From NCBI GenBank assembly GCA_011939005.1, contig GCA_011939005.1_4858.1: DNA of 64,000 nt. One strand, 5' to 3'. Positions 62,941 to 63,411 of this stretch are shown here, piece after piece. The position numbers and the translations under genes are program-made. Numbering within the stretch: the first letter of the stretch is position 1; every line of letters starts with the position of its first letter. Source of the DNA: a phage. The notes beneath the pieces were generated by a model. The model worked only from the letters and a program-made list of their open reading frames with translations. It was not told the DNA's origin and ran no database searches.

Positions 62941-63411
62941 TTAAATCTCCTGGACTGGGCCACCCGTGTTGATATCAAACTTTGCAGCGATGCGAACAGC
63001 GTCTGCTGAACTCGCCCCTGCTGCCATTGCCCCGATTGCAAACTCGCAACCCGACCCAATCGCGACCGGTGGTTGCACAACCGCCATCCAGGGAAGTTCA
63101 TCGTCTTCGTACTGGCCGCCAGTGTACACAACACCTTTGTCCGTAATCGCGATGTACTTGAGCGTGATACCTTTGGGGAATCGGTGGTTGGACGTGAGAC
63201 CGTTGTAACTCGTCAACGCTTCATGAACCGCTTGTACGCCAACCAGTTTTCCAGCGACGCCATAAGCCACGATTTGATTACCATCCAAACGCCAGTTATC
63301 GCTGGGTTTGGCCATGAAGATTTTCTGCGTGTTCATGTCCAGGCGATAATCGCCTAAGGTCATCTGGCTGTCAGAAGCCAGGACTTTTCCGTCGAACGCT
63401 ATCGTCGTCAT
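62941..63411 (-). CDS. HslV/proteasome beta-subunit-like N-terminal-nucleophile peptidase
   Basis: From ATG at about 63411 the protein begins MTTIAFDGKVLASDSQMTLG and later has VAIGSG, matching HslV MTTIV...DGQATLG and IAIGSG; this ATG overlaps the upstream stop (ATGA). ORF track start 63474 adds 21 residues. Confidence 0.6.
   Translation of the reverse strand: MTTIAFDGKVLASDSQMTLGDYRLDMNTQKIFMAKPSDNWRLDGNQIVAYGVAGKLVGVQAVHEALTSYNGLTSNHRFPKGITLKYIAITDKGVVYTGGQYEDDELPWMAVVQPPVAIGSGCEFAIGAMAAGASSADAVRIAAKFDINTGGPVQEI

Follow-up and report, generated by a model that had tools for sequence, protein, structure and literature searches.

The question raised by this locus is what kind of enzyme a small proteasome-like gene in a phage genome encodes, and in which process that enzyme is likely to act. 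The stretch of DNA analysed here (the window) comprises 64,000 nucleotides of phage sequence from contig GCA_011939005.1_4858.1 of NCBI GenBank assembly GCA_011939005.1, and its flanks are 97% identical at the nucleotide level to SPN3US-like jumbo phages (Seoulvirus: JN03, EC001, SaP7 and the SPLA and SPFM series). Close to its end it carries a gene for a proteasome/HslV-type peptidase, referred to here as PPH after the family to which we assign it:

62941..63411, minus strand: PPH gene, encoding a proteasome-like threonine peptidase of 156 amino acids, plus stop

We consider it probable that the product is a mini proteasome-type threonine protease of the PPH family with a non-structural, accessory role in the infected cell.

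The gene consists of 156 codons and a TAA, 471 nt in total, with its ATG at 63409-63411 and its stop at 62941-62943 on the minus strand. The translation opens with MTTIAFDGKVLASDSQMTLGD, in which Met-Thr-Thr comes first, continues in order through PPVAIGSGCEFAIGAMAAG and then FDINTGGPVQEI, and includes PPVAIGSGCEFAIGAM; DSQMTLG occupies residues 14-20 and VAIGSG residues 116-121. A sequence-only reading of this locus had pointed to the same frame, the same internal start and the same two blocks, all of which are present in the translation. The mechanically defined open reading frame (ORF) opens further upstream, at a TTG at 63474. It is the internal ATG, and not this TTG, that is the true start, because a ribosome-binding site precedes it, because it overlaps the TGA stop of a 191-aa (amino acid) upstream ORF as ATGA, and because the homologues all begin there. 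The ribosome-binding site is as follows:

63419..63426, minus strand: Shine-Dalgarno sequence GAGGAAGG, 7 nt 5' of the PPH ATG, read from the sequence

All 32 homologues that we aligned open with MTTIA at residue 1, and an MTT N-terminus is found in 136 of 145 family representatives, a set in which no pair is more than 50% identical and which we also used to score conservation.

Profile and structural comparisons agree on the nature of the fold. The protein matches PHROG 1040, 'peptidase HslV family', with an E-value of 3.6e-35. A family profile built from the alignment of the 32 homologues, when searched against PDB chains, retrieved archaeal proteasome beta (E 7.7e-10), human beta5 (E 1.3e-9), HslV (E 7e-9) and BPH (E 2.5e-8), so that the profile search proposed by the sequence-only reading gave matches to proteasome and HslV chains throughout the range 7.7e-10 to 2.5e-8. 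Comparison of the family with E. coli HslV using hhalign returned a probability of 97.4%. An AlphaFold2 (AF2) model, with a predicted local distance difference test (pLDDT) score of 95.6, contains the alpha-beta-beta-alpha sandwich of the N-terminal nucleophile (Ntn) hydrolases, the very fold whose absence from a prediction had been named beforehand as telling against the idea. The model terminates just past the last core strand, and the protein aligns end to end with active beta5 subunits. Catalytic positions could be mapped through the profile alignment to human beta5:

63406-63408, minus strand: Thr2, equivalent to proteasome Thr1
63370-63372, minus strand: Asp14, equivalent to proteasome Asp17
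63322-63324, minus strand: Lys30, equivalent to proteasome Lys33
63250-63252, minus strand: Gly54, equivalent to proteasome Gly47
63049-63057, minus strand: Gly119-Ser120-Gly121, equivalent to proteasome Gly128-Ser129-Gly130
62974-62976, minus strand: Asp146, equivalent to proteasome Asp166
62965-62967, minus strand: Thr149, equivalent to proteasome Ser169
Gly150, equivalent to proteasome Gly170

These residues are invariant or nearly so in the 32 homologues, and the wider set of 145 representatives gives much the same picture. Thr1 and Lys33 are present in 145/145, as are Gly128 and Gly130; Asp17 is Asp in 141 and Glu in 4, Gly47 is kept in 143, position 129 is Ser in 133 and Thr in 12, Asp166 is found in 144/145, and position 169 is Ser or Thr in 141/145. 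A catalytic set kept this nearly intact speaks in favour of a working enzyme and not of a decayed relic. By its sequence profile and its predicted structure the protein is a proteasome-beta/HslV-type Ntn peptidase (superfamily MEROPS T1), with a signal far beyond chance. The earlier proposal of an Ntn peptidase whose Thr is exposed once Met is removed is thus borne out by a complete catalytic set, the lack of a propeptide, the profile matches and the modelled fold. In the alignment Val52 falls at position 45 of the S1 pocket, which would fit a hydrophobic P1 preference, although this is speculative.

Within this superfamily the protein, judged by sequence and model, belongs to the known PPH family, which was described by Fuchs et al. 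(2021) as proteins of ~140 residues with no H2, no propeptide and no C-terminal S12/H5, occurring in Caudovirales and in prophages of Proteobacteria (PMC8665760). We made this assignment on structural and length criteria together with PHROG 1040, not via the reference sequence WP_042125023.1. Helices are present in the model only at residues 56-67, 122-130 and 135-145; a single helix (56-67) lies between S5 and S6, residues 68-83 form a loop, and both H2 and the C-terminal S12/H5 are missing. In agreement with this, hhalign places a deletion of ~20 residues in PPH relative to E. coli HslV 68-100. The window protein has 156 aa, and the median length among the 145 representatives is 149 aa. With the published PPH it therefore shares its length class, Met-Thr-Thr without a propeptide, the missing H2, the lack of S12/H5, an intact Thr1/Asp17/Lys33/Gly47 and its occurrence in tailed phages of Proteobacteria. 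H2 is missing from one other family only, RPC, and RPC has a C-terminal extension (PMC8665760); the extension is missing in the window protein, which for this reason is assigned to PPH and not to RPC.

PPH is a very large family. The profile matched 13,173 cluster representatives at E<=1e-3 and 9,562 at E<=1e-10, the best matches being 137-170 aa long and aligned from residue 1, and 36 viral structure clusters in BFVD have the PPH fold (E<=1e-3). Homologues are present in phages of Erwinia, Klebsiella, Proteus and Pseudomonas (among the matches listed), and the RefSeq label 'peptidase HslV family' is attached to SPN3US gp1 (YP_009153295.1), to EL gp15 and to proteins of dozens of other phages. 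Given a family of this size, the statement in the sequence-only reading that such proteases are uncommon in phages is inaccurate. With the family named in 2021, the ortholog annotated and an identical protein public, the gene itself is already known and its identification adds little as a discovery.

The description 'HslV/proteasome-like' fared better in its second half than in its first, in that placement in the proteasome-fold T1 superfamily stands but identity with HslV proper does not. On the available profiles and the model, window PPH is not HslV proper but is equally close to proteasome beta, BPH and HslV, since it matches no curated HslV model at its cut-off, its profile E-values against the three are equivalent, and H2 is missing. 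Identity to HslV (ClpQ) is ~20%, and the ~20 residues deleted in PPH include H2; where HslV has an H1-H2 pair on its HslU-facing side, PPH keeps the single helix 56-67. At the C-terminus, the D-x-x-[S/T]-G-G motif of PPH aligns with proteasome beta Asp166/Ser169, whereas HslV profile alignments end at about residue 119. Unlike HslV, the PPH gene is not in an operon with hslU. The distance from the 20S proteasome beta subunits (beta5, beta5i and archaeal) and from BPH is of another kind, PPH being without propeptide, H2 and S12/H5 and 40-50 residues shorter; moreover, 20S proteasomes have alpha subunits and no alpha-subunit gene is present with window PPH.

Taken as a working enzyme, PPH would be translated from the ATG, probably in coupling with the 191-aa upstream ORF, and would be made without a propeptide. 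Thr is a permissive second residue for the host methionine aminopeptidase, which would strip Met1 and so expose Thr. The hydroxyl of Thr1 and its freed alpha-amino group would then form the catalytic centre with Lys33/Asp17, Gly47 would serve as the oxyanion hole, and the Ser129/Asp166/Ser169 network would hold the site in place. Ring oligomers are probable by homology alone, and the apical face, the side that binds HslU or the alpha ring in HslV and beta rings, would be pared down because H2 is missing. We infer from these comparisons the removal of Met, the peptidase activity, the oligomeric state, a cytoplasmic accessory role and the kind of substrate, and the protein would most likely be an accessory protease of the infected cell acting on host or phage proteins. 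The remodelling of host proteins, one of two functions put forward in the sequence-only reading, is possible. It is also likely that PPH is not the capsid-maturation protease, and that it is independent of a canonical phage-encoded HslU partner.

Several points weigh against this picture and need careful consideration. In Pfam, the single PPH sequence scores 14.2 bits against PF00227 (Proteasome), below the gathering threshold of 22.4 bits, with an E-value of 0.035 and residues 7-34 alone aligned, although 12 of the 32 family members match PF00227 at E<0.01. A single-sequence search of PDB gave E 0.58, and NCBIfam returned 16.9 bits to archaeal proteasome beta only and no match to any HslV model. 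As these single-sequence searches stayed below threshold, the protein could be placed only by means of profiles and structure. The fold alone does not fix the chemistry, since connectase, a relative with the same proteasome fold, is reportedly a ligase and not a protease. The loss of H2 seen in the model may also lead to an altered apical surface or quaternary structure, and the authors of PMC8665760 likewise caution that the quaternary structure may differ after H2 loss. Finally, we found no publication reporting the activity, oligomeric state or partner of PPH, or a role or phenotype in infection.

Given the example of connectase, PPH could be a non-proteolytic Ntn enzyme, either a sequence-specific ligase/transpeptidase of that kind or an amidase whose substrate is a small molecule or peptidoglycan, and the absence of H2 may preclude a closed degradation chamber. 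We regard this as distinctly improbable, as the whole proteasome-type constellation is kept, including Ser129, Asp166 and Ser169, and the protein can be aligned along its full length with active beta5 subunits. Even less likely, to the point that we would be very surprised to find it so, is that PPH matures the prohead, the other function that the sequence-only reading had suggested. PPH is a phage-encoded protease, and nothing else favours the idea. In SPN3US every known cleavage of head proteins requires gp245, a T4 gp21-like serine protease that is essential, and gp245 amber mutants accumulate uncleaved proheads (PMC7411985). SPN3US gp245 and phiKZ gp175 (Peptidase S80, T4 gp21-like) are phage proteases from the same kind of genome as PPH, but they have an unrelated fold, a serine triad and a C-terminal targeting propeptide, and are essential and packaged into the prohead; PPH has none of these features, the targeting propeptide included, and window PPH has no match to the prohead protease families S80, S78/U35 and U9. 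SPN3US gp1 is absent from the main text of the SPN3US head and virion proteome papers, and a swap of PPH for an allele of 42% identity leaves the flanks unchanged. Neither in SPN3US-like nor in small phages does the gene adjoin portal or capsid genes. In Jedunavirus IME346 it is one of three inserted genes that lie among the tail genes but on the opposite strand. The Proteus phage RS51pmB has it between lysis genes and terminase, and in phage EL it is upstream of the PhuZ tubulin; the context in small phages is one of short accessory cassettes outside the head module.

A different set of alternatives concerns the unfoldase with which PPH might work, and here the partner HslU-like ATPase for which the sequence-only reading had recommended a search is relevant. 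No HslU-like ORF lies within the window, but tblastn with E. coli HslU revealed an HslU-family ATPase of 577-586 aa in many related jumbo phages, and PPH carriers that encode it include SPAsTU, SPLA3, pSal-SNUABM-04 and the Erwinia phages Caitlin, Huxley, ChrisDB and pEa_SNUABM_43. The phage ATPase scores 208 bits against NCBIfam hslU and keeps Walker A, the GYVG pore loop and Walker B. The accessions ECN9239722.1 (HslU-like) and ECN9239831.1 (exact PPH) are 109 apart in number within one Salmonella Newport assembly, and since the two genes are ~116 genes apart in SPLA3, it is probable that at least one genome has both the window allele and the ATPase. From this one could propose that PPH is the proteolytic core of a phage HslVU-type protease with the phage HslU-like unfoldase, a proposal that we find improbable. 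The ATPase is ~100 kb from PPH in relatives and never adjacent, so there is no synteny, and the two are patchily co-distributed, with the ATPase reduced to a 75-aa remnant in SPLA1a but intact in the closely related SPLA3. In the stretches inspected, no ATPase is annotated within +/-5 kb of PPH in EL or within +/-7 kb in 42-49-kb phages, and phages of the Ea35-70/RAY type are not among the PPH matches listed (best 40 of 70). The C-terminal tail of HslU docks between HslV subunits and thereby activates HslV; the six phage ATPases that we aligned end ~20 residues early, without this tail (DLSRFIL/DLSRYIL), and in place of the I-domain they have an unrelated insert of ~300 aa. The conserved neighbour of the ATPase is a short Peptidase_S80-like gene, not PPH, and gp116, its homologue in RAY, is found within the phage nucleus (bioRxiv 10.1101/2023.02.24.529968). 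Lacking the docking tail, synteny and a consistent co-distribution, and with a nuclear homologue in RAY, the phage ATPase was rejected as the canonical partner of PPH. The search for a partner thus met with little success: none is present in the window, and that of some relatives is distant, patchy and tailless. Alternatively, PPH may hijack host HslU, replacing host HslV and redirecting host ATP-dependent proteolysis. The HslU of the Salmonella and E. coli hosts carries its docking tail intact, and for the small phages that have PPH but no annotated ATPase in the flanks inspected, any unfoldase partner would probably be host-derived. In HslUV and 20S structures, H2 contributes to the apical surface at which HslU or the alpha ring is contacted; PPH has lost this helix and is moreover just ~20% identical to HslV, so that a hijack of host HslU, too, seems to us an unlikely arrangement. 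An accessory protease of the PPH family, working independently of a canonical phage HslU, continues to be the reading that we prefer.

The ATPases of these relatives are of some interest in their own right. In some Seoulvirus genomes a 586-aa HslU-family AAA+ ATPase forms a module with a Peptidase_S80-like protein of 148-160 aa and a 110-aa ORF (positions 3001-5656 of the extracted SPLA3 locus and 4001-6759 of that from SPAsTU; the SPLA1a remnant is at 3501-3728). An unfoldase beside a truncated prohead-protease-like domain could represent an ATP-dependent protease of new composition. Two 'HslV' ORFs have been reported in pSal-SNUABM-04 (PMC7823757), which led us to suspect that the gene next to the ATPase was a second HslV-like gene; this was rejected, as the gene is Peptidase_S80-like in SPLA3 and SPAsTU. 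Jumbo phages of the Ea35-70 type encode an HslU-like 'ATP-dependent protease' as well as distant proteasome-fold proteins of ~180 aa that are annotated as uncharacterised (in BFVD, from Erwinia phages Special G and Bosolaphorus and Serratia phage Moabite), and these might be the true partners of the HslU-like ATPases in that group.

A detail that the sequence-only reading had not noted is the allele of the window copy. SPN3US gp1 (PHROG 1040) occupies the same locus upstream of a tRNA-Trp gene, an order common to SPN3US, SPLA3 and SPAsTU, and is 42% identical to window PPH. The same value of 42% is obtained against JN03, SPN3US and SPLA3, whereas both neighbouring ORFs are 99-100% identical. 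The segment concerned and the tRNA gene that follows it are:

62835..63375, no strand assigned: replaced allele cassette, ~540 bp, from 30-nt sliding identity, blastn and protein identities
62737..62812, minus strand: tRNA-Trp (CCA), 129 nt 3' of the PPH stop, from ARAGORN (Rfam 63 bits)

Sliding nucleotide identity to JN03 is ~0.3-0.7 inside the cassette and 0.97-1.0 above ~63380 and below ~62835, and this sharp drop and recovery delimits the exchanged segment as running from about codon 13 of PPH to its stop and on through the 3' spacer up to tRNA-Trp. All catalytic residues are kept across the swapped alleles. Window PPH is 60.6% identical to the SPAsTU allele, in line with the 58-62% identity of the neighbouring genes, while the SPN3US-type allele is only 38% identical to that of SPAsTU. 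Because the window allele matches the genome-wide divergence from SPAsTU (~60%) and the SPN3US-type allele does not, the simplest reading, which we infer from these identities, is that the window allele may track the genome phylogeny and the SPN3US-type allele may be the incoming one. Among the matches listed from a collection of 50,697 phage genomes, none is more than 61% identical to the window-type allele, the closest being SPAsTU, yet this allele is common in Salmonella isolate assemblies.

Between SPN3US-like genomes that otherwise share 97-100% identity the body of the ORF has been replaced cleanly, and it is tempting to consider the PPH locus as an exchangeable arms-race cassette in which the substrate-recognition surface is under diversifying selection. 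PPH could then serve in counter-defence, cleaving immune or stress proteins of the host and perhaps borrowing host HslU to do so, or it could itself be what host defences sense. We put this forward tentatively, as a rather unlikely reading of the exchange; if true, it would give a proteasome-type protease, for the first time, a defined role in phage-host conflict. PADLOC returned no defence-system match for PPH or its neighbours. More broadly, a very large family with a conserved proteasome-type active site exposes a real gap in our understanding of how viruses use proteasome homologues. SPN3US-like phages are amenable to genetics, as amber mutants are available, and with two natural PPH alleles in near-isogenic backgrounds and an ATPase that is present or absent depending on the genome, they offer a convenient system for the study of viral proteasome homologues.

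The exact 156-aa protein occurs in 122 blocks of a public assembly collection, typically on contigs of ~220-244 kb from Salmonella isolate projects; it is cluster member P0169 (accession ECN9239831.1), with the JGI name 'ATP-dependent protease HslVU (ClpYQ) peptidase subunit'. Genomes of this jumbo phage, nearly complete and each on a single contig of ~240 kb, are present in numerous assemblies of Salmonella enterica isolates, whose serovars include Newport, Enteritidis, Weltevreden, Typhimurium and Saintpaul. The pattern points to carrier states or pseudolysogeny being frequent, or to contamination during co-culture.

With regard to the local layout, the gene immediately upstream of PPH is:

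63408..63983, minus strand: 191-aa ORF, 99% identical to the JN03 copy

The ATGA overlap suggests that this ORF and PPH are co-transcribed and translationally coupled, and PPH is probably co-transcribed with both the 191-aa ORF and tRNA-Trp; a terminator scan found no terminator-like site between PPH and tRNA-Trp, and the promoter and terminator scans together gave nothing exceeding the expectation from shuffled sequence. The 191-aa ORF has no PHROG, Pfam or PADLOC family match and its place beside PPH is not conserved in SPAsTU or the small phages examined. A conserved upstream partner gene was considered and rejected, as the window, IME346 and RS51pmB each have a different, unrelated ORF overlapping the start of PPH. 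No second copy (paralogue) of PPH is present within the window.

On the other side of tRNA-Trp, an 80-aa ORF (62428-62670, minus strand; PHROG 5444) has a weak likeness to the 191-aa ORF, in the C-terminal half of the latter, through the pattern NLYL...D...IIV.A.T..AA. This likeness is marginal (Smith-Waterman score 38, z 3.1, a score reached in 8 of 500 shuffles) and could be due to chance. Upstream of the 191-aa ORF/PPH operon, and outside the window, ~1.8 kb directly 5' is without called genes (5657-7428 of a related extracted contig); this coincides with the conventional genome start in SPN3US-type records and may hold regulatory or terminal sequences. The stretch from ~60860 to 62430 is also poor in ORFs. 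It contains a second tRNA-like element at 61313-61382 on the minus strand, which scores 37.7 bits in Rfam, above the gathering score, without a call from ARAGORN, and which corresponds in position to a 'tRNA-OTHER' annotated in SPN3US. No ORF longer than 81 aa is found in the ~1.5 kb around this element, and the equivalent stretch in SPAsTU holds six more tRNA genes (Tyr, Glu, Asp, Ile, Gln and Asn), so that, on sequence comparison, the ORF-poor stretch may be a decayed tRNA cluster.

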